Counted from the stretch's first letter, positions 5,408 through 63,337 are shown. The stretch is 64,000 nt of DNA from Caulobacterales bacterium (GCA_017302335.1 JAFLCT010000001.1:343-64342); one strand, 5' to 3'. Made by a program: numbers and translations. Notes: a model not told the origin generated them from the sequence alone.

Positions 5408-5720
5408 ATGTCGTCCTTCGGAAATGTGCGCCGCAGAGGTCCCCGGGACGCCTCGGCGCTTGTCTTCAGTCAAGCGGGGATCACACCTTCATCACGGCGC
5501 TGTCCGGCCGCGACGGCTAATGTTTGTCCATCGTCGAGCGCTCGATTCCATCCCCGGTCCGAGCCTGGACGACCGGTTGGGTCGGGTCCTGCTCCCGCGC
5601 CAGCCACGGTGGGGCGGTGATGACGGTAGTTTGAGTTCCTTGTCGCCGCCTCATTCCCATTCTCCTGATCCCCTCGCCCAGGTCGCGTCGTCAGCCACGC
5701 CGCCCTGACGCGCCGAAGGT

Positions 5721-6197
5721 CTAGATCAGCGCGGTCCAGTCGCCAGACTTGCCGCCGGTTTTGGAGATCAGGCGAATGTCGCGGATGACCATGCCCTTAT
5801 CCGCCGCCTTGAGCATATCGTAGAGCGTCAGACAGGCGACCGAAACGGCGGTCAGGGCCTCCATCTCCACGCCGGTGACGCCGGTCAAGCGCACCTCGGC
5901 GCGGACCCGAAAGCCGGGCGGCTCGGCCACTGGCGTGACCGCGACCGTCGCCTTCTCAAGCATCAGGGGATGACACAGCGGAATCAGGTCCGACGTCCGT
6001 TTAGCGGCCATGACGCCTGCGATCTCGGCGGCGGCGATCACCGCGCCCTTGGGCGCCGCGTCGTCGATGACCAGGGTCAGGGTTTCGGGCGCGCATTCGA
6101 CCCGCCCTTCGGCCACGGCGATGCGGCGGGTGGCGGCCTTGGCGCCGACATCGACCATGCGCACGCGACCGTCCTTATCCAGATGGGTCAGACTCAT
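5721..6197 (-). CDS. moaC: Cyclic pyranopterin monophosphate synthase
   Basis: 158 aa with MVDVGAK...IPLCHPL...[10 protein letters not shown]...LYDM motifs. ATGA overlap with the moaB stop. Confidence 0.92.
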
Positions 6198-6730
6198 GGG
6201 CAGATGCCTCGATAGCGCGGGATCTGGCCGACCAAGGAACAGGGCCTGAAGCGGCTGTCCAGCTCCTCAACCAACACCATGTCCCAGGCGTCGCGACAGG
6301 CCCCCGTCGATCCCGGCACGCAAAACACGAAGGTGTCCTCGGCCTGGCCGGCGAAGGCGCGCGACTGCAAGGTCGCGACCCCGACCGTCTTCAGGCTGGC
6401 CATGTGGAAGACCACCGCGAACCCGTCCAGCTCGCGCCGGAACAGGGGTTTGAGCGCCTCGGGCGTGACATCGCGCGGCGAAAAGCCGGTGCCGCCGGTG
6501 GTGATCACCACATCCACCCGCTCATCCTCGACCCACAGCCTGACCTGATCGCGGATCGCCTCGACCTCGTCCTTGACGATGACCTTGCCCGCCAGGACAT
6601 GACCAGCGCTCTGAAGCCGTTCGGCCAGCAGGGCGCCGGAGGTGTCGGTGATTTCGTCGCGCGTGTCCGACACCGTCAGCACCGCGATGTTCAGGGGGTA
6701 GAAGGGCAGGTCCGCCTGTATTCCAGCCAT
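6194..6730 (-). CDS. moaB: Molybdenum cofactor biosynthesis protein B (MoaB/Mog family)
   Basis: VLTVSDTR...[19 protein letters not shown] motif. The ATG at 6730 overlaps the moaE stop (ATGA). Confidence 0.85.
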
Positions 6731-7451: not shown

Positions 7452-9239
7452 TCAGTCCTTCACCGATGCGGTCTCGACCGCTTGCAGGGCCGAAGCCATT
7501 TCCGCGACGAACAGCGTCGCCATTTCATCGCGCATCACAGGATCGCACCAGTAGGGACTCATCACCACCAGGCGGATGACCGACAACTCCTCGCTGTCGT
7601 CGACGCCGTCGTAACCAGCCAGATGGGCGGTCTTCAATGCGGCGCAGTCGCGGCCCAGGGTGGTGCGCGACACGGCGAAGGCCGGAGATTCCTGGAAATA
7701 GGCGAAGACCGCCCCGGTTCGGGCGTTCGAAACGCTGAGCCGCTCGCCGTCTTCGGCCAGGGTGAAACAGGCGATGTTGGCGTCGGCGGGCAGGAATCGC
7801 GCCTGGGGCACGGCCCGCATCACCGCTTCCTCCAGCGCGCGGCGCGCCTCGATCGTGCCGGCCAGGACCGCGCCCAGGCCATCGGGTCCCAGCCCCAGGG
7901 TCTCAGCCGTCAGCCAGGTCGCCGCCGCGCCCGCCGCCGAACGCGACCCCTCCAGCGTCGAGGCCCACTTTCCCGCGCCCAATTCGGGTCGATGCAGATA
8001 GGGCGCATCGAAGGCCGAGACGGCGTAGCTCTGGGCGTCTGACGTCAGGAACGCGCCGCAGGCATAGGGGATGTAGCCCAGCTTGTGCGGGTCGATAGTG
8101 ATGGAATCGGCGCGCGGCAGCGCCCGCAGGGCGGTGCTTACATCAGGTCTCAACGCCGTCTCGGAGGCGCCGTCCAGCAGGGCGCGGAAAAACCCGCCAT
8201 AGGCGGCGTCCGCGTGCCGCCAGATGCGCCAGCCGTGCTGCCGCTCCCATTCGTCCAGGCGATCGAACAGGCCGTCGATCGGATCGACCGCCGACATCTC
8301 GGTCGTGCCCGCGACGCCGACCGTCATCAGCACCGGACGGCCCTGGTCGCGCGCCTGAAACACCAGACGCTCGAAATCCTCCAGATCCATTCGGCCGCGC
8401 GCATCCAGCCGCACGCTCCAAAGGGCCTCGGCGCCCAGGCCGAACAGATTGACCCCCTTGTTCCAGGAATAGTGGCGGTTGCCCGGCGCGATCACCACCG
8501 GTCCCAGATAGTCGATCCCCGAAGCCCGACTGATGCGGCGGCCGACATCCAGCGGATTGCTCGCCATGGCGCTGGCCTGTTTCAGCGCGGTCTCGGTGAC
8601 GCCGTGCGCTCGCCAGAGGTCGCGGAACCGGTCCCAGCCCATGTGCGCGGCCGCGAACGGATCGAGCCGTTCGCCGCGCGTCTCGCTGAGGTGCAGCGCC
8701 ATCGCCAGCCAGTGGTCCAGTCGATAGCGTGCGCGCCACATGGCCTCGAAATTGGCCACCGTACCGCCCGAGGTGAAATGCCCCTGGGCCTGGCCGGGGT
8801 CATAGCCCAGCATCGTCGCCAGATGGGCGACGGCCTCGGTCTCGATCACGCTGCCGACCCGGCTGGCCTCGCGCGAGGTGTTGTTGGGATTGTGCAGCAT
8901 GGCCGCGAACCAGCCCAGGATGGCCGGCAGCGACAGGTCCGACTTCATGTGGGCGATGTAGCGCGGCGTGAAGGTCGGGGTCTCTTCGGTCAAGGCCTCG
9001 CGCAGGACCGCCAGACGTTCAGAGAGACGCTCATGCCCGTCCCCCGTCGCAACCGAACCGACGGCGTCGCCCGGCGACTGGAACCGACATCTTCGCCAGT
9101 CGAACCAGTGATCCAACATCGCCAGCATCTCGTCGCGCAGCCACGGCGCGTGCTCGGAGCGCGCACCGGGAAAATGCTGCTGGGCGAAGGCCGTCGCGAT
9201 CTCAGGGGCGGCCGTCGGGTTCATCGTCGAAGACATCAT
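7452..9239 (-). CDS. PLP-dependent group II decarboxylase family protein (substrate unknown)
   Basis: HFTSGGTVANFEA and the PLP-lysine motif SITIDPHKLGYIPYACG. The start is uncertain: ATG-ATG at 9239 or TTG at 9287. The stop lies 5 nt from the moaD start. Confidence 0.75.
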   Translation of the reverse strand: MMSSTMNPTAAPEIATAFAQQHFPGARSEHAPWLRDEMLAMLDHWFDWRRCRFQSPGDAVGSVATGDGHERLSERLAVLREALTEETPTFTPRYIAHMKSDLSLPAILGWFAAMLHNPNNTSREASRVGSVIETEAVAHLATMLGYDPGQAQGHFTSGGTVANFEAMWRARYRLDHWLAMALHLSETRGERLDPFAAAHMGWDRFRDLWRAHGVTETALKQASAMASNPLDVGRRISRASGIDYLGPVVIAPGNRHYSWNKGVNLFGLGAEALWSVRLDARGRMDLEDFERLVFQARDQGRPVLMTVGVAGTTEMSAVDPIDGLFDRLDEWERQHGWRIWRHADAAYGGFFRALLDGASETALRPDVSTALRALPRADSITIDPHKLGYIPYACGAFLTSDAQSYAVSAFDAPYLHRPELGAGKWASTLEGSRSAAGAAATWLTAETLGLGPDGLGAVLAGTIEARRALEEAVMRAVPQARFLPADANIACFTLAEDGERLSVSNARTGAVFAYFQESPAFAVSRTTLGRDCAALKTAHLAGYDGVDDSEELSVIRLVVMSPYWCDPVMRDEMATLFVAEMASALQAVETASVKD

Positions 9240-9373
9240 GGCCCGCCCATAGCGGGTCGGGACGGGATCACCCTTGTCATGTGTCAAACCCGGCCTTCAC
9301 CGCCGTCAATGCGACCACGCCTGAGGTCGGCGAGGCGTCAAGACCGGTTTCCGCCTTCGGCGCGAGGCTGCGC

Positions 9374-10549
9374 CTAGTCCCGCAGACCGCCGATGACGCC
9401 CTTTTCCAAGATCACCAGCAGGCCGTCGCTTAAGCGGCCCAGGCCCGCGCGTTCCAGCTTGGGATTGCGGCTGCCGTCGGCCTGGAAGTGGAAGGCGCGC
9501 CGCGCATCCTCGGGCATGGAGCGTTCGGCGTCGTACATACTGGAAAAATTCGAGGCCAGTTCCGGTCCCGGAACGATGGCGAAGTCGTCGCCGCCCAGCG
9601 GCAGAGCGATCAGCATGGCGCTGGAGGCGTCCTCGACCAGGCGATTGTCCGCGACATAGCGCGCCTCACGCTCCTCGGCGAAACGGACCAGGCTCTTACG
9701 CGACCGCACCGCGGCGGCGTAATGCGGCATCAGCGCCTGCAACGCCCCGGCGTGTTGTGACGGCGCGCTGGAGGCGAAGATGTCGGGCGCATCGTCATGG
9801 ACACGGATGCGGCGCGGTTGAATGACGGGTTCGCTCGGCGCGTCCCGTTCCGCTCGCGACAGGGCGCCGCCGAATGTGCGATCCCCGCGCGCCTCATCGT
9901 AGAAGGCGTCGGACCTCTGGGCGGGGGCCGCGCCGCCGTCGGGCGCGCCGCCCTTCAACTGGCGGACTTCCGACTTCAGCTCTTCCACCTGGCGATAGAG
10001 CGCGACCAGGACATCGACCAGGGTCGTGGCCGATCCCCGCGAAAGAGCCTGGGTCTGGTTGATGAAGCCCGCGCGCTGCTGCGCCAGCATTTCGGTATGT
10101 CGACCGTCGGCGAACGCTTCGATCAGGGTCTGCGGGGATCCGACCATGGCCAGCCTTCGTCTCTGCGAGAACATCAGGAAGATCACAACGGCCTGGAGCA
10201 GCAGGATGAGGGCGCCCAGAAGATAGAAAGCCCAGTCAGCGCCTAGCCAAGCCACGATCGGAGACTGGACCTCGACCGTTTCGGATGGGTTAATCTCTTG
10301 ATTGCTTTGCCTAACAATCAAAACCTCAGGTGGAATTCGTCGGTCGACCGAACCCGCCCTCGGCGCCTCTGGTACGGCCGCAGCGCTCAGTTCCGAAGAC
10401 GGGGCCTTGTCCGGCGTGGACGCGACGGCGGGCGGACGCGGCGCGGTGCGGGTCGCCGCCGCGGTCTCCGCTTCCATGAACGAGGCCGCCTGGGCGTGGG
10501 TGGCGACGATGCTCAGCACCACCCAGGCGGCAAGGCCCGCGCCCTTCAT
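9374..10549 (-). CDS. Bitopic membrane protein, function unknown (last gene of the candidate system)
   Basis: Signal peptide (MKGAGLAAWVVLSIVATHAQA/AS), one TM helix (WAFYLLGALILLLQAVVIFLMF), then a coiled-coil-like segment and a roughly 200-aa C-terminal domain. Its ATG overlaps the stop of the 1219-aa gene (ATGA at 10546-10549). Confidence 0.7.
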   Translation of the reverse strand: MKGAGLAAWVVLSIVATHAQAASFMEAETAAATRTAPRPPAVASTPDKAPSSELSAAAVPEAPRAGSVDRRIPPEVLIVRQSNQEINPSETVEVQSPIVAWLGADWAFYLLGALILLLQAVVIFLMFSQRRRLAMVGSPQTLIEAFADGRHTEMLAQQRAGFINQTQALSRGSATTLVDVLVALYRQVEELKSEVRQLKGGAPDGGAAPAQRSDAFYDEARGDRTFGGALSRAERDAPSEPVIQPRRIRVHDDAPDIFASSAPSQHAGALQALMPHYAAAVRSRKSLVRFAEEREARYVADNRLVEDASSAMLIALPLGGDDFAIVPGPELASNFSSMYDAERSMPEDARRAFHFQADGSRNPKLERAGLGRLSDGLLVILEKGVIGGLRD

Positions 10550-13500
10550 TGGGTGGCGCCTTGCGTTCGACGCTCTCGCCGACTGAGACCCGAACTGGGC
10601 GCGCCGACGGACAGGCGGTTGTTGTAGCCCGGCGTCGTCAGGTCGCCGAGCAGATGCCGCAGGGCGCTGACGAACAGGGGTTCCAACGGGACCTCGCCAC
10701 GGGCCTGCGCCTTCTGCACCGAGGCCAAAAGCTTGTTGCGGATATTGGCCGCCGCGCTCTGATCGCCCCGGCCCTGGATATCCAGAGCAAAGGTGCTGTG
10801 TTCGGCCAGGGCCTTCAGGAAGGTGTCGAACTCCGCCAGATCCGGGCGGGACACCGAACCCTGATGCGGGAAATCGATGATGTCCGTCTCGGTCCCCATG
10901 ACGACCGAGCCGATCTGCACCGCCAGGCCCGAGGGTTCGAAATCCTGAGCCGCGCGTTCATTGTCCTCCAGCACGATGGCGGCGTCCCGGATCACCATGC
11001 CGTTCGCCACCTCCAGCTTCGGGATCGGCGACATGAAGACGGACGGACGCCGGGATTGGCCGTCCGCCGCCAGGCTGAACAGCGTCAGAAGGCGGCTGAC
11101 CGGCGTGTCCGCGCGCGCATCGGTGTGATCGCCGTGCATCCGTTTGAACAGGCCCGCGCCGCGACCGCACAGGGCGAAGCCGCACGAGGTCAGCAATTCC
11201 GGCCGCAGATCGCCCTGGGCGATCAGGCCGCGCGCGACCAGGCCCAGATACCAGGCGACCCCGCCCAGGAAGGTGAAGGCCGACCGGGTCAGCGCCTGGC
11301 ATTCCTCGGTGCCCGAATTGTGCAGCCAATGATCGTCCAGCGCCCTTTCCAGCACCGGGCCGCTGAACAGCAGTTCGCCGACATGGGGCAGGCGATCTCG
11401 GCCGATGCCCTCGGACTCGTCGCCCGCCAGGATCTTGGCCCAGGCCCCCAGGTTGAGGCGGTCGCGCAGCAGGGCCGGGTTCTTGATGACGTGGGCGGTG
11501 AAGAAGTCCTGGCCCGCGAGACGCAGCGAACCGCGCCACAGCGGCCGATTGTCGGCCCAGATCGCCACGTCCGTCGTGCCGCCGCCAATGTCCAGGACGA
11601 TGTTCAGATCGCTGGCGACGAAGCTGTGATCGCCCAGACCTCCGCTAAGCACATAGTTGGCCGCCGCCCGGCCTTCGGAGTACAGGCCGCGGATCGGCTG
11701 GGTTTTGAGTTCGGCCATGCGAGCCTCGGCGGCGGGTCGAATAACCCGCAACTCGCGCCTCAACAGCTCCAGGAACTCGCCGCCGTCGGTCCTTTGCGCA
11801 TCGGGCCGCGAGAAGCGCCACTCCAGCAGATCGGGGTCCTTGTTGCGGGCCAGGGCCTCCACCCCGATCATCATCATCATCTGGCGAAGGAAACGACCCG
11901 CCAGGATGCGAGACCGCGGCGACGGGTCCGCCTTCAGACCAAAGTCCGCAGTCGATCCGGTCTCGGAACCATGGTGCCATTTCAGATTGAAGCTGGCGCG
12001 GGTCAGGACGCCCCGGAACTTCTTCTCGTCGTCGTTGTCTTCCTTCAGTTCGAGATCGGGTTGGAAATAGATCAGCGACGAGAACAGGGTGCGGTGGTCA
12101 TCCTCGCTGACGCCCGCGCGCTGGACCACGACGGTCGGCGTCGGCGTGCGTTTTTCCACCAGCGGAAAGAAGATCTCGGCGAACGGCCATCGCAAGCCCC
12201 GCTCCGCCGCCGCATTCCGTGCCGGTTCGCTGGACGTGATTGCTTCCAGCGTGCGCTTTCCGAACACCACTGGCAGCCCGTCCTCGAAACAGGCGACGGT
12301 GTTGGTCGTGCCGAAGTCGACGGCCGCAATGCCCACTTCGTTCGCCGTCTCGATGACCGTGGGCCGCAACAGGGTCATGCCCGCCGGTTCCGCCGACGCG
12401 CCCTGACTTTCCGCATAGGCGAAGAAGATGGCTTCAAAGGCGAAGGGCGAGGATTGAAGCTCCTCGACCACCGCATCGTTGTCGGGACGCACCCGGTTGT
12501 TCCAGGCGGAGGCGAAGCCCTTGCCCGCATAGGGTTCGGCCTCGCTGACGATGTCGTCGTCGGCGCATAGGGGGCGGAAGGCCGCCTCTTTCTGGAGCGG
12601 CGCCAGCGGTTTCAGCATTTCCGCGAACGCCCGCCCCGAGACGGCGAAACGCGCGCGAATGTTGTTCTCCATCTTGGTGGAGTAGTTGAGGCGCGCGAAA
12701 TACCAGTTCCATTTGGAGCTGGCGATGTCGGGCCACACCGCGGCCCCGCCATAGTTCCATTCCGCCTCGTCGACGCGCTCGCCCTGGCCCGGCTCGGGTT
12801 GGTCGGCGTAGACGCGCCGCATGGTGAACTCGGCGGGCTTGACCACCCATCCGTCCGCATGGCCCGGCGCCTGGGAGCGGTGGCCTTCCAGCTTCAGCTT
12901 CAACGAGACCGACTCGCCGGACCCGCCCTCGGATCGGACCTCTATCGCCTCGGCCAGTTCGGTCGGTTTCATCAAGAGCAGGGCGAGCGGGGTGAGCGGC
13001 AACAGGGCGTCGCGCAAACCGGCGGGGTGCCCCGGAACGACGGCCTTCAAGGCCAGCCGAAGGAATTTGCGGGTGAACAGGGCCGACGGACGCGCGACCA
13101 GATAGTTGGCCTCGGCCGCCGCCGTCTGGACCTTCAGCAGCGCGGCCTCGCTGTCCAGCACCTCGGCTAAGGTGGTGGCGCCCCAGACCACGACATCGCG
13201 CGCGGGCTTGCCGCGCGCCTCGGCGATGGCGGGATCGACCAGGATGACGCCCTTGAACGGCGCCGTCTCCGCGTCGAAATCGGCGCGCAGGGCCACACGG
13301 CATTCGGACAGTTCGGCCGGGGCGCCCAGGTCGTCCTGCTCACCCAGTTCGACGCTGGTGCGAACCAGTTCATAAAGGGTCGGCGCCCCGTCGCGCGGCC
13401 CCGCACGCACTTTCAGCCTGTAAGGCGTGTCCGCCTCGCCGCAGGCGTCGGCGAAATCGGTGACCCGATCCCGCAGACTGACATAGACGGGATCGTTGTA

Positions 13501-14205
13501 ATCCGTGGTCAGGGTCTCCAGACCGGCCGCCAGATTGTCGAGATAGGTCTGCAAGGCGCGCCTCTGCACTGCCGACAAGGCGCGATCGCCTTTCAGCTTC
13601 AGCGGGTCGATCCAGTGCGAACCCGCCATCCAGGGCACGACGGGGATCGGCGTCCGATCGCAAGCCCGCCCCGGCGACACCAGGCTGGCGGGACTGAGCG
13701 CGCCGATCAGCCGGGGCCGGTCATAGTTGCGACGATCCTGGCTGTTGCGACCCTTCACTGTCTCGATGTGGATCAGCCAGGGGGTCCGCCAGTCGGCCTG
13801 GGCGGCCGCCGCCTCCTGGGGCAGCGTCTGGGTGGGCAGAAGCGCCAGCAGAATCCGATCCAGACGCGGCCCGTCCGCCTTCAGCCGAACCGGCCGCGCC
13901 GACAGCTTGTAGAAGTCGGCCATCAGGTGTTCGAGCGCGAACAACGCCAACAGGGCGCGCCACTTCTCGACCGTGTCCGTCTCCAGCGGATGGTCGGCGG
14001 TGATCAGGGCGTCGGCGAAGGTTCGCGGCTGCGCCCAGGCGTCCGGCACGGACTTGACGTCCTGAACGCCGCCGCCCGTCTTGACGTCCAGTCGCGCCCC
14101 CATCTCGGCCAGGGTGCCCGGAGACGGCATCCATTCGCCAGCGCGGTCGGGATCGGGAAACGATCCTCGGGCCTTCAACGGAGGGAGGTTGTAGGTCCGG
14201 CTCAT
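10546..14205 (-). CDS. 1219-aa protein with actin/Hsp70-fold ATPase core and a ~620-aa N-terminal region of unknown function
   Basis: Hsp70-type phosphate-1 motif IAAVDFGTTNT (nt 12298-12327) and phosphate-2 motif LDIGGGTTDV (nt 11566-11595). A possible adenosine motif follows (FALCGRGAG). Overlaps both neighbours by ATGA. Confidence 0.75.
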   Translation of the reverse strand: MSRTYNLPPLKARGSFPDPDRAGEWMPSPGTLAEMGARLDVKTGGGVQDVKSVPDAWAQPRTFADALITADHPLETDTVEKWRALLALFALEHLMADFYKLSARPVRLKADGPRLDRILLALLPTQTLPQEAAAAQADWRTPWLIHIETVKGRNSQDRRNYDRPRLIGALSPASLVSPGRACDRTPIPVVPWMAGSHWIDPLKLKGDRALSAVQRRALQTYLDNLAAGLETLTTDYNDPVYVSLRDRVTDFADACGEADTPYRLKVRAGPRDGAPTLYELVRTSVELGEQDDLGAPAELSECRVALRADFDAETAPFKGVILVDPAIAEARGKPARDVVVWGATTLAEVLDSEAALLKVQTAAAEANYLVARPSALFTRKFLRLALKAVVPGHPAGLRDALLPLTPLALLLMKPTELAEAIEVRSEGGSGESVSLKLKLEGHRSQAPGHADGWVVKPAEFTMRRVYADQPEPGQGERVDEAEWNYGGAAVWPDIASSKWNWYFARLNYSTKMENNIRARFAVSGRAFAEMLKPLAPLQKEAAFRPLCADDDIVSEAEPYAGKGFASAWNNRVRPDNDAVVEELQSSPFAFEAIFFAYAESQGASAEPAGMTLLRPTVIETANEVGIAAVDFGTTNTVACFEDGLPVVFGKRTLEAITSSEPARNAAAERGLRWPFAEIFFPLVEKRTPTPTVVVQRAGVSEDDHRTLFSSLIYFQPDLELKEDNDDEKKFRGVLTRASFNLKWHHGSETGSTADFGLKADPSPRSRILAGRFLRQMMMMIGVEALARNKDPDLLEWRFSRPDAQRTDGGEFLELLRRELRVIRPAAEARMAELKTQPIRGLYSEGRAAANYVLSGGLGDHSFVASDLNIVLDIGGGTTDVAIWADNRPLWRGSLRLAGQDFFTAHVIKNPALLRDRLNLGAWAKILAGDESEGIGRDRLPHVGELLFSGPVLERALDDHWLHNSGTEECQALTRSAFTFLGGVAWYLGLVARGLIAQGDLRPELLTSCGFALCGRGAGLFKRMHGDHTDARADTPVSRLLTLFSLAADGQSRRPSVFMSPIPKLEVANGMVIRDAAIVLEDNERAAQDFEPSGLAVQIGSVVMGTETDIIDFPHQGSVSRPDLAEFDTFLKALAEHSTFALDIQGRGDQSAAANIRNKLLASVQKAQARGEVPLEPLFVSALRHLLGDLTTPGYNNRLSVGAPSSGLSRRERRTQGATQ

Positions 14206-15785
14206 TCGGCCCTCTCCTTGGTCGGCACGCGCGCGGCGTGATGCACCATGGCGGCGAGCCGACCAAAGCCCCTGTGCCCGGCGGCGGCATGGGTGTCGCG
14301 CAGGGCGCGGCTGGTCAGCTCGTCATGCAGGGCGGCGGCGCTGCGCGGGGGTTCATTGTGGTCCAGGGGCGACAGCGCGGCGTTGTAGGCCTCGTTCGCA
14401 CGTTGATCCGTCAGGCCGTCGGCGATCTTGATGGGGCGCCTGGGTTGGCGGACATCGGCCTGTTCCTGAACGGCCTCGGTGTTCCAGAGCTGGAATTTCA
14501 GACCTGAATCCTCGGCGTACAGGCGCATCGCGCCGCACCACATCAACAGGCTGTCGAACAGCAGGATCAGGCGTTTCCTCGCGTCATCGGTTTCCGTGAC
14601 CTGGAAGTCGACGTCGCGGGTCAGATCCTGAAGCCAGCCCGCCTTCAGCCGGCCCAGGAGATTGCGGCGACCCAGTTCCGGCTCGACCTGGAACCGCCAC
14701 CACACCGCCGTGCGCAACAACTGGCCCAACCGATCATAGGTGTCCTGATGCCGTGCATGAGCCGCGCCCGGCAGGTCGCCCCAGCCCACGACCCCCGGCT
14801 TGGCGCGGGCGCAGACCTTCACGGCGGTTCCGACCTCTTCGGCGGCTTCAATCGCGGGGGCGTTGAAGAAGTCGATGGCCGCCTGGGCGCCCAGAAGCTC
14901 TGACGGCAGGGGCGGATTGATCTGGTCGTTGTCGCCGGGCGAGTGGTGCGGAAGCTTGAATATCTTGTCGCTGCCCGCGAGGTAGATGTGGTCGAAGACC
15001 GGCTCGCTCTTGAACAACTGGTTGTAGTACTGGAGCGCGGCCTGCGCCTGGGGCATCAGATTGGCGGCCAGCACGACGTTGTCGGTTTCGTCTTCGGGGT
15101 CCGCGAAGCTGAAATAGGGCAGCATCAGCGCCCCGCCCAGCTTCACCTTGTCGCTGTTGCGGGCCTCCTTGCGCAGTGCGTTGATCCGCCGCGCCAGGAT
15201 CGGGAAACCGGCGGCGCCGGTGCCCCCGAAGGCCGAGCCGACCAGGAAGATGCGCACATCGCCGTCGATGGTGGCGTTCTTCATCAGCTCGATCATGCGC
15301 TTCTTGAACTGGCCGTCGCCCAGTTCGAGGCTGGCCAGCATGGCTGCGGCGCCGACGTGGGCGCGGCCGCGGTAGCCCTGGCCCAGCCCCATGTCCTGCT
15401 CCTCCTGGCCCTCCAGGAACAGCAGATCCATCAAGGCTTGCCGGTCGGCGTCCAGACCGCCGCGGTCCAGAATCTGCGCCAGACTGCCCTGCCCGTCGGC
15501 CGAGGGCCGCCAATAGGGATCGTCGCCGAACAACGGCTCGATCTGCACGCGGCCGAGCGTGGTGCGGGTCCAGTCCAACCGGTTATCGGCGCTGAAATCC
15601 CTCCTGAATTTCACCAGATCGTAGAGCAGTTCGCGCGTGCGCGTCAGATTGCCGTTCGCCTTGTCCTGGTCGACCAGGCCGACGACGACCTTGCTGGGTC
15701 CCAGTCCCGCGAAAAAGAGATAGAGCGCGGCCTCGACGACCTTGGCGCCGGTTCCTCCGACGCCGATGAGGACGTTGGTGGTCAT
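14202..15785 (-). CDS. Divergent FtsZ/tubulin-like GTPase (527 aa)
   Basis: ORF 14202..16313 trimmed to the ATG at 15785, which overlaps the stop of the upstream 4-TM gene. The N-terminal IGVGGTGAK (15741-15767) resembles the FtsZ T1 loop. GSAFGGTGAAG (15207-15239) resembles the tubulin/FtsZ GGGTGSG signature. Confidence 0.7.
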   Translation of the reverse strand: MTTNVLIGVGGTGAKVVEAALYLFFAGLGPSKVVVGLVDQDKANGNLTRTRELLYDLVKFRRDFSADNRLDWTRTTLGRVQIEPLFGDDPYWRPSADGQGSLAQILDRGGLDADRQALMDLLFLEGQEEQDMGLGQGYRGRAHVGAAAMLASLELGDGQFKKRMIELMKNATIDGDVRIFLVGSAFGGTGAAGFPILARRINALRKEARNSDKVKLGGALMLPYFSFADPEDETDNVVLAANLMPQAQAALQYYNQLFKSEPVFDHIYLAGSDKIFKLPHHSPGDNDQINPPLPSELLGAQAAIDFFNAPAIEAAEEVGTAVKVCARAKPGVVGWGDLPGAAHARHQDTYDRLGQLLRTAVWWRFQVEPELGRRNLLGRLKAGWLQDLTRDVDFQVTETDDARKRLILLFDSLLMWCGAMRLYAEDSGLKFQLWNTEAVQEQADVRQPRRPIKIADGLTDQRANEAYNAALSPLDHNEPPRSAAALHDELTSRALRDTHAAAGHRGFGRLAAMVHHAARVPTKERAE

Positions 15786-16306
15786 CAGCGCCTCCCCAGG
15801 CGATGCAGCACGGCCGCGCCGGGCACGGCCGCCGCCATGGCCGGGCGGGTCGAAAAGACCGTGCCCAGATAATAGGCCAGGACGACCCCGGCCATCGTCA
15901 GGCCGACCGACAGGGCCAGGGTCGCAGGGTTCTGAAGCGCGGCCTGAAGCGGGCGGCTCCAGAGCATGAACCAGGCCTCGCCGCCCACGGCTGCAAGCAC
16001 CGTGACGAACAGACCGGCCCAGGCGCCGCGATAGGCCTCGGCCTGGCGATCGTTGATCGGATCGGCCCGTACGGTGATCCACACCCAGACCAGGGACATC
16101 AACGCACTGAGCGCGAAGGCGATTGACGCCAGGGGCAGCAGCAGTTGTCGCAGATCCCCGAGCGCCAGTTCGATCTGCAATCGACTGGACGCTGTCTCCA
16201 TGAAGCCCGAGTTCAGCGACTCTTCCCGGCCGCCGATCAGCCACAGACCGATCGCCACGACGCCCCAGAACAGAAGATGCACCAGCACTGTTCGCAAGAA
16301 ACGCAT
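15785..16306 (-). CDS. Four-TM membrane protein, function unknown
   Basis: 173 aa with four hydrophobic helices. Its frame differs from the spurious N-terminal extension of the 703-aa track ORF. Stop/start overlap with the tubulin-like gene. Confidence 0.65.
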   Translation of the reverse strand: MRFLRTVLVHLLFWGVVAIGLWLIGGREESLNSGFMETASSRLQIELALGDLRQLLLPLASIAFALSALMSLVWVWITVRADPINDRQAEAYRGAWAGLFVTVLAAVGGEAWFMLWSRPLQAALQNPATLALSVGLTMAGVVLAYYLGTVFSTRPAMAAAVPGAAVLHRLGRR

Positions 16307-16348
16307 ACGCCATCCCCTCTCAAAATGATCAAACCCCGGCCGCCGCCC

Positions 16349-17809
16349 CTAGCCTTGCGTGCGTACGATGAAGGCGAAGCCCGCCCCCGCGCCTGGCTCA
16401 CCGCGCGCGGACAAGGCCCGGGCGTGGGCGCTTTCCAGGGCCTCGGCGAAGCGGGCCAACCCCAGGGTCGGCGCCAGGCCGTCGTCGCGATCCAGGGCGG
16501 CGCGTTCGGACTCGACCGACCAGTCGAAGGTCCAGTCGGCGCTCCGCATCCAGGCCGCGGCAGAACCCGCGCCTCGGCCCGGCGCCAGCGGAACCTCGCC
16601 CACGATCAGCAGCGGCTCACTCGGCAGCCCGCGGGACTCCGCCCTTGGATCGAAGCGGAAGACCACGTCGCCCGCCTCATCCTGGCTCCAGTCGCCGTTC
16701 AGCCGACCGAGCAGGCGCCAGGCGCCCGGCGCACAGGCCCGCCCCCCGGTCTTGACCCAGACCGAAGCCGTCGCAGCGCCCACATCCAGCGGCCGCGCGA
16801 TCTCGACGTCTCTGCCCTTCTCGCGCCAAATCAGGCGAAGGGCGGGGGCGCTGGCGCCCGAGCCGCCATCACGTTTCAACGTGTATTGCGCGATCGGCCC
16901 GACATCGACGCGCGGCAGGATCGCGGCCTCTTCCATGCCGACGCGGAACAGCGGGCCTTCCAGCTTCGCCGGTCGAGGCGTGACCGCCTGCTTCGGATCG
17001 AGGTTGAACAGGGTGCGGCGTACGCGGCCCTCGTTGAAGGCGGTTTTCAGATAGTTGGCCGCCCTCAGTTCGCGATCCAGCGCGGCGAGGCGATCGGGCG
17101 GCCCGGCGGCGACGAGATAGAGCGGTCGACGCCGCGCCTCCACATTCCTGCGACCGCTGGGAAGGCTGTCCAGGATTCGCCCCTGATAGGGCAGGTTGAA
17201 ACCATAGACGGCGACGCCACGGCCAGAGGCCATGATCCGGCGCAACGGCTCGCCCAGGGCGGCGGCGTCGCTGACGGCCTTCTGCCGATTGTCCATCCAC
17301 AGGTCGCTGATCAGGATGGTCAGCCGGTTCGGCGCCTCGTCCGCCATGCCTTCCAGCGCCGCGTCGATGTGGCTGGCCTTGGCGTCATAGGCCTGCGCCC
17401 TCATGAGGCGATCCAGATCGGCGGCGGGCGCCTCGGTCATCGCCTCGCCCTCGCCGAACAGCTTGTATCCGGTCTGGTCCGCGCCCCACGGCGGGTATCT
17501 CAGCAGGTCGGGTATGAAGCTTTCCCGCGCCCCGCCCGCACGCAGATAGCCCTGCATACTGGCCGACCGATCGAGATAGACGACCGCCCCGCTCCCGCCC
17601 GCCGCGACGACGTCGGCGTGCACGTCGACTGGTATCCAGGGTCTGGCCGCAGCGGGAAAACACCCCCGGGCGCCCTGAACGCCGTCCGCGACCGACGGCG
17701 GGCCGCCATCAGTCTTCGCCGGGGTCCAGCGGTCGCATCCGACGACCCCTTGAGCGGCGCCGAGACAGACGGCTCCCACGACCAGTTTCTTCAATAGGCC
17801 TGCCCCCAT
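16349..17809 (-). CDS. vWA-domain lipoprotein
   Basis: Lipobox LGAAQGVVGC and MIDAS-type DxSxS (VVYLDRSASM, nt 17558-17572), followed by TILISDLW. An alternative TTG start at 17794 (MKKLVVGAV...) is preceded by GGGGCAGG. Confidence 0.7.
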   Translation of the reverse strand: MGAGLLKKLVVGAVCLGAAQGVVGCDRWTPAKTDGGPPSVADGVQGARGCFPAAARPWIPVDVHADVVAAGGSGAVVYLDRSASMQGYLRAGGARESFIPDLLRYPPWGADQTGYKLFGEGEAMTEAPAADLDRLMRAQAYDAKASHIDAALEGMADEAPNRLTILISDLWMDNRQKAVSDAAALGEPLRRIMASGRGVAVYGFNLPYQGRILDSLPSGRRNVEARRRPLYLVAAGPPDRLAALDRELRAANYLKTAFNEGRVRRTLFNLDPKQAVTPRPAKLEGPLFRVGMEEAAILPRVDVGPIAQYTLKRDGGSGASAPALRLIWREKGRDVEIARPLDVGAATASVWVKTGGRACAPGAWRLLGRLNGDWSQDEAGDVVFRFDPRAESRGLPSEPLLIVGEVPLAPGRGAGSAAAWMRSADWTFDWSVESERAALDRDDGLAPTLGLARFAEALESAHARALSARGEPGAGAGFAFIVRTQG

Positions 17810-17839
17810 AGGTTGAACTATGGAACATCGTTCAACCTA
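17809..17839. promoter_or_regulatory. Perfect 10-bp inverted repeat TAGGTTGAAC-N11-GTTCAACCTA
   Basis: Read directly from the sequence. It lies in the AT-richer 64-bp divergent intergenic region and abuts the annotated ATG of the vWA gene. Confidence 0.5.
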
Positions 17840-17873
17840 ATGTAAAGGTGAAGACCGAGTTAATTCAGTCGGC

Positions 17874-18458
17874 TTGGGGGACTGGGGTTTGGCGGCGTTC
17901 GAGACCATCATGTTTGATGACGGCGGGACCGTGGTCGAACTCCAGACCGCTCGCTCGGTGCGGCGCGCGGTGGAGAACGGCGTCCTCAAGATCGACACCC
18001 TGGTCACGCTGATCGCCCTAGACGGATCGACCCGCCGACTACGCGCCGCCGAGATCGAGGCGCTTCGTCCATTGTTCGGCCAGGCCGAAGTCGTGGACGA
18101 AAAGGTCTCGCCCGTCGTCGATCCGCCGATCATCGAGGCCGCCAGTGATGAAATCTCGGCCGAGACCGACCCTGTCGTCGCGCCCCGGGCGACGCAGATC
18201 ACGGCCGTGCAGGCCGCCTTCTCATCGGCGACGACCGGGACGAGCGCCCCCCCGTCCATCCCCCCAGCGTATCGAACCGCGGCCTCGGCGAAACCGGGAG
18301 GCTGTGGGCTGGTCGCCTGGGGTTGGACCCTTCTGATCGGCGGGCTTCTTCTCAGCGGCGCCTACCCGCCCGCGAGTCTGGCCTTCGTCATCGGCCTGGC
18401 GCTTCTGCTGTTCACCGTCGTGCGGGGCATGGCCCGCCGCATAGGCGGAGGCGCGTGA
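17874..18458 (+). CDS. Membrane protein with N-terminal GYF_2-like domain (paralogue 1)
   Basis: The N-terminal ~60 aa align with the next gene (ARSVRRAVENGVLKIDTLVTLI... versus ARSLRRAIENGLLTRETLVTLI...). Two C-terminal TM helices. TTG start, so the start is uncertain. Confidence 0.55.
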   Translation: MGDWGLAAFETIMFDDGGTVVELQTARSVRRAVENGVLKIDTLVTLIALDGSTRRLRAAEIEALRPLFGQAEVVDEKVSPVVDPPIIEAASDEISAETDPVVAPRATQITAVQAAFSSATTGTSAPPSIPPAYRTAASAKPGGCGLVAWGWTLLIGGLLLSGAYPPASLAFVIGLALLLFTVVRGMARRIGGGA

Positions 18459-18463
18459 CGGCG

Positions 18464-19897
18464 ATGAGCGGTCTCGATTTCAGCCTGCTGTTCTCCGAGG
18501 GCGGCGGCGCCCATCAGTTGAGTTCCGCCCGGTCGCTTCGCCGCGCCATCGAGAACGGACTGTTGACCCGCGAAACACTGGTCACCCTGATCCGGGACGA
18601 AGAAAGCCGAACCCTGCGCGCGGGCGCCGCGCCCGAACTCGCCCCCCTGTTCGATGAGATCATCGGCGCCCTGTCGGTCCGAGAGTCTGAGACGGAGACG
18701 CAGACACAGGCCGCGGACGCCGAAATCTCCGAGGCGTCGCACGCTGAAACCGCCGCCGCCGAAAGCCCCTCCGACACCGCGAGTGCGCTTGAACCTGAGG
18801 CGGTCTCGGCGACGCCCCCGCCCACCTCCAAGAGCGTGGAGGGCGACGGCCGTCTCGAACCGGAAACGGTCGATCGCGCCGCATCGAACAGGGACCCCGA
18901 GTTCTTCGACCTGGATCAACCGCCCGCCCCGGTCGTCTGGGGCGGCGTCGCGGCCATCCTGCTGGCGATCCTCGTCCTGCTTGTGAAATGCGCAGGCGTC
19001 GGACCCGCGCCCTCCCCTGTGAAACCGCCACCCCCCGTGGTCGTGACCCTCTATGTCACGCGCCAGACCAATGTCCGCCCCGATGTCCGGGCGCGCGAGA
19101 TCGGGACCGTGGAGCGTGGCGAGGTCCTGCGTGGCGTAATCCAGGGCGGCGGAGACGGCGACCGATGGCTGCGGGTGTCCGAAGGGCCGCATCAGGGCCG
19201 ATGGGTCTGGGCGGGCAATCTGTCGCCTAGTCCGCGCCCCGCATTGATCGAACGTCTCGACGGCGCCCATCAGGTCCTGAGACCTGGCGTGCTGCGGCGG
19301 GAAGGTCAGGACGGGCGGTTCGTCGAGCACGGCGTTCAGATCGGCGACCGGCTGACCCTGCTGGCCTATGTCGCCGACGATCAGGTCGAGGTTCAGATGG
19401 AAGGCGGCGGCGTCGGCTATCTTCCGGCCCAGGTCTTCCGCCCCGACGAACAGGCCGAGGCCCAGCGCCAGGCCGAACGGGAGGCGGCCCGCCAGGCCCG
19501 AGACGCCGCCAGGGTTGCGGCGGAGGAAAACCGCCGCCGCGCCAACGAAGCCGCCAATGCGGCGGCGGATGCGGCGGCGATGGATGTTCCGCGCACGATC
19601 TCCCAGGCCGACGCCAACTGGCGGCTGCGGATCACCCCGCGGTTGCCCAGCCGTTTGAACCTGTCCGACGGCTCCACGCTGCGCGCGAGCGTCGCCTGCA
19701 TCGTCAGAGACGACGGCGCCATGAGCGATTGCCGCCTGGTGTCGGAACAGCCGCGCAACTCGGGCTACGGCGCCGCCGCTCTGGAGGCGGCCCGTTCCAG
19801 CCGCCACTACCCCGAGGATCGAAGCCGCCGTCCCGTCGGAGGCCGCCAAGTCACCCTGAATTACGAAGCCGACGTCGGCGGGCTGATCAGCCCCTGA
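18464..19897 (+). CDS. Membrane protein: GYF_2-like N-domain, TM helix, SH3-like domain, coiled coil, TonB-C-like domain (paralogue 2)
   Basis: Start trimmed to the ATG at 18464 (MSGLDFSLLF). TM helix VVWGGVAAILLAILVLLV. The C-terminus (ASVACIVRDDGAMSDCRLVSEQPRNSGYGAAALEAA) resembles a TonB C-terminal domain. Confidence 0.6.
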   Translation: MSGLDFSLLFSEGGGAHQLSSARSLRRAIENGLLTRETLVTLIRDEESRTLRAGAAPELAPLFDEIIGALSVRESETETQTQAADAEISEASHAETAAAESPSDTASALEPEAVSATPPPTSKSVEGDGRLEPETVDRAASNRDPEFFDLDQPPAPVVWGGVAAILLAILVLLVKCAGVGPAPSPVKPPPPVVVTLYVTRQTNVRPDVRAREIGTVERGEVLRGVIQGGGDGDRWLRVSEGPHQGRWVWAGNLSPSPRPALIERLDGAHQVLRPGVLRREGQDGRFVEHGVQIGDRLTLLAYVADDQVEVQMEGGGVGYLPAQVFRPDEQAEAQRQAEREAARQARDAARVAAEENRRRANEAANAAADAAAMDVPRTISQADANWRLRITPRLPSRLNLSDGSTLRASVACIVRDDGAMSDCRLVSEQPRNSGYGAAALEAARSSRHYPEDRSRRPVGGRQVTLNYEADVGGLISP

Positions 19898-20633: not shown

Positions 20634-22097
20634 ATGACAACGCATCTGACTAGGGCCGCTGCGGCATGGGTCGTCGCGCTTTTCGGCTTCATCGGTCTTC
20701 AGGGCTGCGCCACGGTTCGGTCGGCGCCCGATCATCGGTTCGACACCCAACCGACGGGGATCGCCTATTTCCTGCCGATGCGGCTGGCGCGGCTGACGAT
20801 CACCCAGACCCCCGTCAGCCTGGCGGACTTGATCACCGATCGGGACGACAAGATCGTGGCCCGCGCTGCGGCGCGGGCGGCCGCTGCGGCCGCGACAGCC
20901 AAGCGCGAACAGGCGCAGACCGCGCTCAACGCCGCCACGGCCGCCAACCGCGCGGACCTGACCAGGGCGCTCGAAACGGCGACGGCGGATGAGAACAAGG
21001 CCAAGACCGCCGCGACGGCCGCCAATGCGGCGGTCGAAGCCGTCACGCGCGACATCTACGCGGCCAGCGTGAACGGACAATCCTGCACCTTTGTCCCGAC
21101 CATCGACCTGCTGCCGGTGCAGGCGGATCGACGCCGCCGCTTCGCGCTTCAGCCCGTTCACAACGAACTGCGTGACGACACGCTGAAGATTGGCCTGACG
21201 CCGACCAGCCTGCTGACGACCGGCGATGTCACCGCCGTAGACCAGACAGGCCAGATCCTCGTCGACCTCGCCGGCGTGGCCGGCGCCGCGGCGGGCGTCG
21301 GCCGGGATGGTGGCGGCGCCGATGACGACGGTTGTCCGGGTCCGGCGGTCTGGGCCACGATCTTCGACCCCGCCGAGGCCGCCGCCATCGACCAGGTCAA
21401 TCTCCAGCTCACCAGCAATGACCTGCCCTTCTTTCTGACAGCCCAGATCGATGGACCGGCGATCTCACGAGATCGGACGACCGACGCGGCCCTGCCCGCG
21501 GCCCAGGTGGCGGAAGGCGTATTCTACCGGTCGGCCGCGCCGCTCCTGCTGATCCTGAACCGCACCTTCAGAACAGGCGCAGGTGCGGAAAATGCAGGTG
21601 GAGACGCCGGCGGCGCCCAGATCGTCTCTGGACCGGTTCAGATCCCGCGGGTCGCCGCGCCGCCGGTTCGGGTTGATCCCGCACCTCAGGTGGAGGGGGT
21701 TCCGGCCCTGGCCGCCGTGCTCATCCTGCCCCAGGCGGGACCGGTGTCGCGCCTGTCGCTCCCGGCTTCACCGTTCGTGCGCACCCATCACGCCTATGAA
21801 TTCGCGGACGGGGCCTTGATCTCGGTCTCCAGCGAGCGCCCCGGCGCCGTTCCTTCCGCCGTCAAGGTGCCTCTGCTCGCGCTCAACGCCTTCGCCGACG
21901 CCTTCGCCAAGGCCGTGGCGGTTCGCGTCGATATCCGCTCCACGCGCATCAATGACGACACGGCGGCCATCGACGCCGTCATCCAGGATCGGCTCAACGT
22001 CGCCCTGATGTCCTGTCTGGACGCCGCAGGCGCCGACACGACGGCGATCCGCGCCTGCGCGAGCGCGTACCGAGGCGCCGGGGCGCCCGCGCCGTGA
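20634..22097 (+). CDS. Lipoprotein with Ala-rich coiled coil, function unknown
   Basis: Lipobox FIGLQGC and an Ala/Thr-rich helical stretch. Its stop overlaps the caspase-like gene start (GTGA). Confidence 0.6.
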   Translation: MTTHLTRAAAAWVVALFGFIGLQGCATVRSAPDHRFDTQPTGIAYFLPMRLARLTITQTPVSLADLITDRDDKIVARAAARAAAAAATAKREQAQTALNAATAANRADLTRALETATADENKAKTAATAANAAVEAVTRDIYAASVNGQSCTFVPTIDLLPVQADRRRRFALQPVHNELRDDTLKIGLTPTSLLTTGDVTAVDQTGQILVDLAGVAGAAAGVGRDGGGADDDGCPGPAVWATIFDPAEAAAIDQVNLQLTSNDLPFFLTAQIDGPAISRDRTTDAALPAAQVAEGVFYRSAAPLLLILNRTFRTGAGAENAGGDAGGAQIVSGPVQIPRVAAPPVRVDPAPQVEGVPALAAVLILPQAGPVSRLSLPASPFVRTHHAYEFADGALISVSSERPGAVPSAVKVPLLALNAFADAFAKAVAVRVDIRSTRINDDTAAIDAVIQDRLNVALMSCLDAAGADTTAIRACASAYRGAGAPAP

Positions 22098-27135: not shown

Positions 27136-27377
27136 TGCCGATCCGCGTCACCCTCGACGAACTGATCGTCAAAAAGGGTATCAAGGCCCGCGATCTGGCG
27201 GCCCAGGTGGGTCTCAGCGAGACCCAGCTCTCCCTGTTCCGTTCCGGCAAGGTGAAGGGCATCCGTTTTCGCACCCTGGCCCGGTTGTGCGCCGCCCTGG
27301 ACTGCCGTCCGCGCGACTTGCTGGACTATGACTTCGATCCCGTCGACCGCGAACCGCCGAGCGAGCCGCAAGACTGA
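27135..27377 (+). CDS. XRE-family HTH transcriptional regulator (YozG-like)
   Basis: 80 aa: MPIRVTLDELIVKKGIKARDLAAQVGLSETQLSLFRSGKVKGIRFRTLARLCAALDCRPRDLLDY. Confidence 0.85.
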   Translation: MPIRVTLDELIVKKGIKARDLAAQVGLSETQLSLFRSGKVKGIRFRTLARLCAALDCRPRDLLDYDFDPVDREPPSEPQD

Positions 27378-27498
27378 TCGTCCAGACGCCGCCCGAGTCG
27401 TCGGCCCGCAAATGACGCTGGACAGGCGCCCGTTCCGGGTGTGTCCTGAACGGTCCGGCGCAAATCACAAGAACAGCCGGGCTTGAGGCAGGAAACGT

Positions 27499-60345: not shown

Positions 60346-60501
60346 GTCCCGTCCATGGCGGAAGCGCCTCAACTGACGCCACGCCGCCCCATGAGCGGAA
60401 TAATACACCCCGGCGCGGCGCGGCCGCGCGCAGGTTTCATCGTCGCCGTCCGTGACTTTCGCGCCGTCCCGCGCTAGGTCCGCGCGCCTCAAGGACGCCG
60501 C

Positions 60502-63326: not shown

Positions 63327-63337
63327 ATCGGATCGGG

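Follow-up and report, generated by a model that had tools for sequence, protein, structure and literature searches.

A giant protein family with an actin/Hsp70-type ATPase core is encoded next to FtsZl1 tubulin-like GTPases in a compact, predicted envelope cassette

A 64,000-nucleotide stretch of DNA from a Caulobacterales bacterium (GCA_017302335.1, JAFLCT010000001.1:343-64342), here called the window, contains a gene for a giant protein of 1219 residues. It is the fourth of five genes on the minus strand that encode, in order of transcription, a predicted lipoprotein, a small hydrophobic membrane protein, a tubulin-like GTPase, the giant protein and a further membrane protein. Here ‘cassette’ refers to these five genes, and all positions are listed in Table 1, counted from the first letter of the window. 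A first-pass annotation, made by a model from the sequence, had reported an open reading frame (ORF) of 1219 codons at this place without naming a strand. The frame is real, reads from the minus strand and starts with ATG. The G+C content at third codon positions (GC3) is 84% in this frame, compared with 68% G+C overall in the window, and the neighboring genes are alike. The start codon is backed by homologues, which measure about 1100-1250 residues at full length and share the N-terminal pattern NLPP..G.W, with the consensus M...NLPPF.....FP.P...G.W.

Neighboring genes of the cassette overlap from the second gene onward. Genes 2 and 3 share TGATG as stop and start, and ATGA joins gene 3 to gene 4 and gene 4 to gene 5, so that the giant gene overlaps both neighbors, its ATG with the stop of the tubulin-like gene and its stop with the start of gene 5. 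On the evidence of the sequence, the tubulin-like and giant genes are translationally coupled in the window.

Three points go beyond the first-pass annotation, namely the minus strand, the resolution of a 703-codon upstream ORF into two genes, and the tubulin-like nature of the gene directly upstream. The 703-codon ORF (window 14202-16313) was rejected as a single gene, as its first 176 codons are non-coding by GC3 and homology starts from M177. These spurious codons are Arg/Gly-rich, an artefact of high G+C content, and the gene of the 173-residue membrane protein lies there in another frame. The protein of 527 residues that starts at M177 scores 30.4 bits against Pfam Tubulin_2, for which the cutoff is 27. 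Its tubulin-like glycine motifs, GVGGTGAK and FGGTGAAG, are kept in 12 orthologues. Tubulin_2 corresponds to the FtsZl1 family, which lacks the T6-H7 elements used in FtsZ filament contacts (Makarova and Koonin 2010, PMC2875224). The tubulin-like neighbor is the most informative fact about the giant protein.

The pairing of the two genes was counted over 18 loci, including the window, that have at least 2 kb of sequence upstream of the giant gene. A tubulin-like gene is directly upstream in 18 of 18, among them loci of Alphaproteobacteria, Clostridiales, Flavobacteriaceae and a plasmid of the cyanobacterium Gloeothece, and the upstream genes of the other loci score above or near the Tubulin_2 cutoff. 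In addition, one protein of 1683 residues (P0158) joins both partners. Over the first 455 residues it shares 33% identity with the tubulin-like protein of the window (E 2e-57), and its residues 530-1676 match the profile of the giant family. We thus consider it highly probable that the giant family is obligately paired with FtsZl1.

The first-pass annotation had proposed that the giant protein carries an ATPase core of the Hsp70/actin type, with two phosphate-binding loops about 230 residues apart and a Gly-rich FALCGRGAG downstream. The first loop, IAAVDFGTTNTVACF, is present one residue away from where it had been placed (aa 626-640 instead of 625-639), while the second, NIVLDIGGGTTDVAIW, was found at aa 868-883 and FALCGRGAG at aa 1010-1018, both as described. 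The gap between the two loops is 227 residues, or 242 between the two Asp, close to the earlier estimate.

The structure of residues 596-1219 was modeled by AlphaFold2 (AF2) with a 28-sequence family alignment, giving a mean predicted local distance difference test score (pLDDT) of 83.1 and a predicted TM-score (pTM) of 0.88. A Foldseek search of the PDB with the core model returned 379 matches at E<=1e-3. All 50 of the 50 matches listed have the actin/Hsp70 fold, comprising Hsp70/DnaK nucleotide-binding domains, MreB, actin, Arp2/3 and MamK, each with a probability of 1.00. The best were DnaK/Hsp70 nucleotide-binding domains, with E values of 6e-8 to 1e-6. The TM-scores by target of these 50 are moderate (0.45-0.57, with root-mean-square deviations of 8-12 Å) because of large insertions in the core, and therefore the model fixes the superfamily and not the closest family.

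This superfamily, named ASKHA (sugar kinases, Hsp70 and actin), has recognizable features, which the model and the Foldseek matches reproduce. There are two RNase-H-like lobes, each opening with a β-hairpin, and the phosphate-1 (DxGxxx) and phosphate-2 (DxGGGT) loops lie on the first hairpin of each lobe. The first-pass annotation had let its proposal stand or fall on whether a confident structural model would place both motifs on an actin-like fold, and both lie on the canonical hairpins. The adenosine motif forms a strand, a loop and a helix, and is accompanied by Connect-1 and Connect-2, the equivalence of the Connect motifs being drawn by eye. From known ASKHA motifs, we take YSEGRAAANYVL to be the counterpart of Connect-1, E-P-x-A-A-A of Hsp70 and MreB, and PKLEVANGM is presumably that of Connect-2, P-D-E-A-V-A-x-G of Hsp70. 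Likewise, DFGTTNT resembles the phosphate-1 signature of Hsp70 and MreB.

Conservation was counted over 162 relatives of full length, whose identity to the giant protein of the window is 22-51%. D630, G632, D872, G874, G875, G1014, K1063, E1065 and G1069 are 100% conserved, E844 and K742 are 99% conserved, and R1015 is 93% conserved. The active site of the giant protein, as these aligned sequences indicate, is under strong selection. The protein is probably cytoplasmic, and ATPase activity is predicted from the conserved active site.

In principle the motifs could have arisen by chance, or could be remnants left after nucleotide binding was lost, as the matches to Pfam and NCBIfam MreB are sub-threshold (15.5 bits against a cutoff of 27 for Pfam). 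However, the nucleotide-contacting motif residues are 99-100% conserved at an identity as low as 22-51%, and the confident model finds its structural matches with full probability. Because of this conservation and this model, we judge the motifs not to be chance and find this explanation extremely improbable. Thus the Hsp70/actin-like core proposed earlier is borne out by model, structural matches and conservation together, and we are nearly certain that the C-terminal half is an ASKHA-fold ATPase and that the family is identified as such.

Which ASKHA family is closest was considered by both structure and sequence. The structure leaves proximity to Hsp70 or to MreB/actin undecided, and the nearest sequence motifs are of the MreB/FtsA type. 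Alignment of the family profile by hhalign with a bona fide MreB (validated by Pfam MreB_Mbl, 1e-139) gave a probability of 95.7%, and the phosphate-2 region aligns to its MreB counterpart in both hhalign and a PDB sequence search. That PDB search returned weak phosphate-2 matches only, to MreB and an exopolyphosphatase. Scans of the giant protein with Pfam, NCBIfam and PADLOC gave nothing above threshold, with MreB and FtsA as the sub-threshold matches. Pfam MreB is matched at profile positions 146-180 only, over the second motif, and NCBIfam MreB at 15.8 bits against a cutoff of 293. Among 28 family members, the best Pfam MreB E value is 1.5e-5, and Pfam FtsA gives weak matches in 16 of the 28.

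Assignment to MreB was rejected, as the scores are below the cutoffs and a short stretch of the profile is matched. DFGTTNT and DIGGGTTD are near the phosphate motifs of MreB, and MreB/Mbl is matched by sequence in PDB, Pfam and hhalign. On the other hand, the similarity covers ~50 residues only, and the giant protein has 1219 residues versus ~340. The same motifs, together with the structural matches to MreB, MamK and actin and one plasmid-borne cassette, would suit a self-polymerising filament of the ParM/MreB/MamK type, whose task, with a TubZ-like partner, would be the segregation or positioning of DNA or of some structure in the cell. However, with ~1200 residues, a core that contains large insertions and a module of ~600 residues in front of it, the protein does not look like any known filament-forming actin homologue, and most copies were found on contigs of at least 100 kb, not on plasmids. 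No gene for a centromere-binding adaptor was recognized in the cassette, whose remaining genes encode envelope proteins. We therefore regard such a filament as quite improbable.

Assignment to Hsp70 was likewise considered. The giant protein resembles the nucleotide-binding domain of Hsp70/DnaK in its fold, in its best structural matches, in having all five ASKHA motifs and in the spacing of ~142 residues between phosphate-2 and the adenosine motif. It differs in that the core lies in the C-terminal half behind a 600-residue module and in the distance of 242 residues from phosphate-1 to phosphate-2, which is longer than in Hsp70. We conceived that the protein could be a non-polymerising chaperone or remodeller of the Hsp70 type. 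Its N-terminal module, standing in for the substrate-binding domain, would form a clamp, and the ATPase core would power this clamp to unfold, disassemble or translocate a client, for example the tubulin-like protein or the lipoprotein. The ranking of the structural matches would fit, as would the phosphate-1 motif, which resembles that of Hsp70, and the near-invariant K742, which could stand for the catalytic Lys of Hsp70. A large neighbor of FtsZl1 is also labeled COG0443 DnaK in the tables of Makarova and Koonin.

However, Pfam HSP70 matches neither the giant protein nor any of the 28 relatives at E<=1. In the model, the substrate-binding β-sandwich and helical lid were not found after the core, and a small α/β region of ~145 residues is present instead. 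The C-terminus reads ...RRERRTQGATQ, not EEVD, and scans of the operon genes and of adjacent ORFs detected neither a DnaJ nor a GrpE domain. The first-pass annotation had noted that the substrate-binding domain, the EEVD tail and the DnaJ/GrpE partner are missing, and was right in all three. MreB, actin and MamK score nearly equal to Hsp70 in Foldseek, and the matches by sequence are to MreB and FtsA, not to Hsp70. The Hsp70 assignment was thus rejected, and the chaperone function that goes with it is unlikely.

A likeness to large proteins of the SrfB type, which the first-pass annotation had raised with caution, did not hold. SrfB, too, is a large bacterial protein (~1000 residues) about which little is understood, and its operon is small. 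However, none of the 28 members matches Pfam SrfB (PF07520) at E<=1, there are no SrfA or SrfC partners, and SrfABC is described as a tripartite toxin, whereas nothing similar is suggested for the cassette. SrfB was therefore rejected.

The region before the core, of ~620 residues by the earlier count, had been called unknown, and it has remained without a match in Pfam, PDB or BFVD despite a confident model. AF2 modeled residues 1-615 with a pLDDT of 85.6 and a pTM of 0.81. After the N-terminal tail, in which N6, L7, P8, G23 and W25 (NLPP and G23.W25) show no or almost no variation among 28 relatives, comes a module with an α/β part followed by a β-rich part (aa ~421-522 and 570-612). Its conserved motifs are PD.WAQ and W82-R83. 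Over the 162 relatives, P54, W57, W82, R83, P172, P201, P403, W491 and P492 are at least 97% conserved, W499 is one of many Trp, Pro and Arg positions conserved to at least 95%, and G23 and W25 of the tail are 90% and 93% conserved. Foldseek with this model gave no match at E<=1e-3 in either PDB (best 0.036, probability <0.2) or BFVD, and no Pfam match was obtained for the N-terminal half even at E<=10. Ig-like and OB-fold fragments that appeared in the PDB and BFVD searches were dismissed as noise, with Foldseek probabilities of at most 0.35. As modeled, this confident module of ~560 residues, for which neither PDB nor BFVD offered a structural relative, is new.

The C-terminal region after the core (aa 1076-1219) is recovered in alphaproteobacterial relatives by a profile of that region and has no Pfam family, in keeping with the first-pass annotation, which had recognized no motif in the last ~150 residues.

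The extent of the family was determined by an exhaustive profile search over representative clusters at 50% identity. It gave 3043 clusters at E<=1e-3, of which 1984 remain at E<=1e-10 and 907 at E<=1e-30, and nearly all of the best 150 clusters are full length at 1100-1250 residues. A word-index search had given 29 clusters from Sphingomonas, Novosphingobium and metagenomes, named, if at all, ‘hypothetical protein’; the notion of a rare family was rejected when the exhaustive search gave about 3000. By genome locus, members were found in Caulobacter, Brevundimonas, Novosphingobium, other Sphingomonadaceae, Azospirillaceae and Pelagibacteraceae, and distant ones in Sericytochromatia, Clostridiales and Flavobacteriaceae. 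One member lies on the mobilizable 47.5-kb plasmid Cy782204 of Gloeothece verrucosa PCC 7822 and is a RefSeq ‘hypothetical protein’. No relative was found in phage genomes or IMG/VR viral contigs. In the literature, we found no description of the giant family or of a pairing of tubulin-like and ASKHA proteins. With about 3000 clusters and no name or model in Pfam, NCBIfam or PADLOC, the giant family is new.

The other genes of the cassette recur to different extents. Homologues of the lipoprotein lie upstream of the tubulin-like gene in 9 alphaproteobacterial loci. Homologues of the 173-residue protein were identified by sequence and position in L002, L003, L004 and L007, and a small membrane-protein gene by position and size in L019, L020 and L021 (173-191 aa) and in L022. 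In L001, L005 and L007, the C-terminal ~70 residues of the 391-residue protein are again encoded after the giant gene, and a downstream gene of 267-633 residues is present in each of L019-L022. In L022 (NC_014503.1, 39251-47534), the cassette consists of genes for a 156-residue protein, a 511-residue tubulin-like protein and an 1118-residue giant protein, followed by proteins of 415 and 528 residues, which replace the 391-residue protein of the window and give weak coiled-coil-type Pfam matches only.

Outside the cassette, the flanking genes are heterogeneous and mostly housekeeping, and apart from one recurrent gene nothing is common to the window and the other loci. The cassette is a self-contained module. 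The sole recurrent neighbor encodes a divergent membrane protein of the SH3/TonB_C type, described below.

Incidentally, a 6.4-kb contig of Sericytochromatia (L012) carries two giant-family genes ~3 kb apart (2-2536 and 5518-6372), of which it holds the C-terminal 845 residues of one and the N-terminal 285 residues of the other. No tubulin-like gene was detected between them. The two may have arisen as tandem paralogues, or they may belong to a cassette of variant make-up.

The products of genes 1, 2 and 5 are predicted to be located in the envelope. The lipoprotein contains D80-x-S-x-S, the invariant D169 of ‘SDLW’ and two invariant Cys. In 9 orthologues, DxSxS and the invariant Asp of ‘TDLW’ occur at a spacing like that of von Willebrand factor A (vWA) domains, a likeness at the level of motifs. 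The 391-residue protein has a region of ~260 residues after its transmembrane (TM) segment at 98-131, which would be cytoplasmic. Pfam scans found no nuclease, toxin or other recognizable effector domain in the cassette.

Our best overall explanation, to which we give a probability of roughly 0.55, is that the five genes form an envelope cassette centered on two nucleoside triphosphatases (NTPases), FtsZl1 and the giant ATPase. The link to the envelope comes from the lipoprotein signal, TM segments and conserved Cys of the partner proteins, and from the recurrent SH3/TonB_C neighbor. Whether the products work as an envelope-associated two-NTPase machine is an evenly balanced question. In such a machine, the two NTPases would form a complex at the inner membrane, the 173-residue and 391-residue proteins would anchor it, and the lipoprotein would be coupled to it from the periplasm. 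The two ASKHA lobes would open and close under the action of ATP, and this movement, relayed through the N-terminal module, would control how the tubulin-like protein assembles or attaches to the membrane. The giant protein would then act on its tubulin-fold partner as FtsA acts on FtsZ, and the cassette would be a compact form of the FtsZl1-centered operons for which ‘membrane remodelling’ was predicted (Makarova and Koonin 2010).

The analogy with cell division can be followed only part of the way. Cells have two main cytoskeletal engines, NTPases of the actin fold and of the tubulin fold, and in bacteria their joint action is known mainly as FtsA-FtsZ. As there, a gene for an ASKHA protein is adjacent to one for a tubulin-superfamily GTPase, other genes of the cassette encode membrane proteins, and the giant family carries a phosphate-2 motif of the MreB/FtsA type, as seen also in the weak FtsA matches of 16 of 28 members. 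Unlike there, the order is reversed with the tubulin-like gene first, and the giant protein has three times the size, carries the additional N-terminal module, whose fold matches nothing known, and shows no amphipathic membrane helix. Furthermore, the cassette is accessory and patchy, with no cell-division genes within or around it, and the giant protein's partner FtsZl1 is devoid of the T6-H7 filament elements, which weakens the analogy. A role of the giant protein as an FtsA-like tether or regulator of the tubulin-like protein is accordingly a tentative proposal, made by analogy.

A closer comparison is with the operons of FtsZl1 itself. In Magnetospirillum magneticum, FtsZl1 occurs with vWA genes and a gene of 1626 residues labeled ‘COG0443 DnaK’, as tabulated in supplement 5 of PMC2875224. 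The main text of that paper makes no mention of Hsp70 or DnaK, and none of the operon components that it lists is a partner resembling actin or Hsp70. The cassette resembles these operons in that its tubulin-like gene passes the Tubulin_2 cutoff, its partners are predicted to be membrane-associated, and its lipoprotein has motifs like those of the vWA metal ion-dependent adhesion site, the fold of which profile methods did not confirm; the giant ‘DnaK’ gene of M. magneticum is a further likeness. It differs in that typical FtsZl1 proteins of those operons have ~1000-1100 residues with coiled-coil and helical C-terminal parts, compared with 527 here, and in that it lacks the P-loop GTPase, OmpA-like and kinase partners that recur there. 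The fold of the core was already known. New are the giant ASKHA family, its N-terminal module and the compact envelope cassette in which it is obligately paired with FtsZl1, a new subtype of FtsZl1 operon.

Several points weigh against the two-NTPase envelope cassette. Adjacency and a single fusion link the giant and tubulin-like proteins only indirectly, and the P0158 fusion could be either genuine or an artefact of assembly or frameshift at the overlapping stop and start. FtsZl1 may not polymerise, given the missing filament-contact elements. The giant protein has no obvious membrane-targeting helix. A vWA domain was not found in the lipoprotein by Pfam at E<=10 (9 orthologues), by a PDB profile search or by a profile homologue search. 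To these is added the moderate structural agreement of the core described above. Finally, the patchy spread, the variable location and the copy on a mobilizable plasmid fit a conflict system equally well.

In the conflict system so envisaged, directed against phages or of another kind, the NTPases would serve as NTP-dependent sensor or switch and the envelope proteins as effector or trigger. The cassette is self-contained and sits at unrelated genomic positions, the window has a caspase-trypsin operon ~4 kb from it, and an RHS/YD-shell gene is near it in L021. Combinations of vWA and NTPase are common in predicted conflict systems. However, none of the cassette ORFs tested, from which the 173-residue gene was left out, matches PADLOC-DB 2.0 at E<=0.01. 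Among 141 flanking genes of 16 loci, PADLOC matches are few, with one gene per family and none recurring, and by Pfam the flanks have the mixed housekeeping content mentioned above. The lack of a recognizable effector domain and the absence of the family from phage genomes and viral contigs also argue against defence, as does the finding that the caspase and trypsin genes are not conserved at other cassettes. We consider a defence function rather unlikely.

A bolder version of the two-NTPase reading, which we regard as possible and no better than speculative, is that the cassette encodes an unrecognized envelope-spanning, dual-nucleotide device present in several phyla. A tubulin-type GTPase and an actin-type ATPase would be obligately coupled, now and then within a single polypeptide, and wired by way of inner-membrane proteins to a periplasmic lipoprotein, with the N-terminal module as a new fold that couples the two. 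The device would represent a new class, either cytomotive or remodelling membranes.

The two-NTPase cassette would matter in several respects. It provides a second pairing of actin and tubulin folds beside FtsA-FtsZ, evolutionarily independent and strictly conserved. FtsZl1, which diverges most within the tubulin superfamily and has awaited a function since 2010, gains a concrete partner, and the proposed complex fits the prediction of membrane remodelling and extends it. With five genes, the cassette is compact and suited to genetics and structural work. If it proves to be a defence system after all, it would be a new type built on cytoskeletal folds.

Table 1. Positions of the cassette genes, parts of the giant protein and flanking features in the window
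Feature	Position	Strand	Basis or remark
Promoter-like site TTTACA-18-CATAGT	17817..17846	minus	8 nt upstream of gene 1; weak
Gene 1, 486-aa predicted lipoprotein, DxSxS...TD motifs	16349..17809	minus	Signal peptide ending in Cys; first cassette gene
Gene 2, 173-aa hydrophobic membrane protein	15785..16306	minus	GC3 frame analysis; ~4 TM by eye
Gene 3, 527-aa tubulin-like GTPase, FtsZl1 / Pfam Tubulin_2	14202..15785	minus	Pfam; start M177 of 703-aa ORF
Gene 4, 1219-aa giant ASKHA-fold protein	10546..14205	minus	ORF and translation; stop codon 10546-10548
Giant protein, predicted disordered N-terminal tail, aa 1-55	14041..14205	minus	pLDDT mostly <55
Giant protein, N-terminal module of unknown fold, aa 56-612	12370..14040	minus	AF2 model; no Foldseek/Pfam match
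Giant protein, ATPase core, actin/Hsp70 fold, aa 613-1075	10981..12369	minus	AF2 model and Foldseek vs PDB
Phosphate-1 motif IAAVDFGTTNTVACF, aa 626-640	12286..12330	minus	Strand 625-631, loop, strand 635-640; pLDDT >90
Connect-1 motif YSEGRAAANYVL, aa 842-853	11647..11682	minus	Strand, then helix 844-853 in model
Phosphate-2 motif NIVLDIGGGTTDVAIW, aa 868-883	11557..11604	minus	Hairpin 867-873 / 878-884 in model; pLDDT >90
Adenosine motif FALCGRGAG, aa 1010-1018	11152..11178	minus	Strand 1008-1013, Gly loop, helix
Connect-2 motif PKLEVANGM, aa 1062-1070	10996..11022	minus	Conserved K1063, E1065, G1069
Giant protein, family-specific α/β C-terminal region, aa 1076-1219 (~145 aa)	10549..10980	minus	Mostly pLDDT 80-97
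Gene 5, 391-aa membrane protein	9374..10549	minus	Hydropathy: signal/anchor, TM 98-131; last cassette gene
Divergent membrane protein, TM + SH3-like + TolA/TonB-like C-terminal region	18461..19897	plus	M47 start inferred

The promoter-like site is the sole match in 9.6 kb, compared with 0.7 expected by chance, and is not significant alone; the scan for promoters and terminators was otherwise uninformative.

Other genes of the window were also inspected. Pfam gave no match at E<=1e-3 for two putative ORFs on the minus strand, 60241-63426 (1061 aa) and 27214-28839 (541 aa). Downstream of the cassette by 87 bp and on the same strand, a gene at 7452-9287 encodes a 611-residue pyridoxal phosphate (PLP)-dependent decarboxylase (tyrosine-decarboxylase-like, 1e-52), followed by moaE/moaB/moaC/moeA. 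The decarboxylase, moa and moeA genes are not near the cassette in the other loci. On the plus strand, three overlapping genes at 20634-24792 encode a 487-residue protein of unknown function, a 578-residue caspase-domain protein (Peptidase_C14, 3.7e-26) and a 321-residue trypsin-like protease (4.4e-54). The set begins ~2.8 kb past the first cassette gene and is a possible conflict module working as a proteolytic cascade. Because they are not conserved neighbors, both this caspase-trypsin operon and the decarboxylase/moa genes were left out of the system.

The divergent membrane protein on the plus strand (last row of Table 1) is the neighbor that recurs, with homologues adjoining the cassette in L005, L007, L010, L020 and L021. 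The L021 homologue matches Pfam SH3_3 and TonB_C and the L007 homologue SH3_3, while the window protein itself gives a weak TolA match only. Its gene and the one before it, at 17874-18458 (plus strand), encode proteins that have in common an N-terminal domain of ~60-100 residues (39-48% identity), with one TM segment each.

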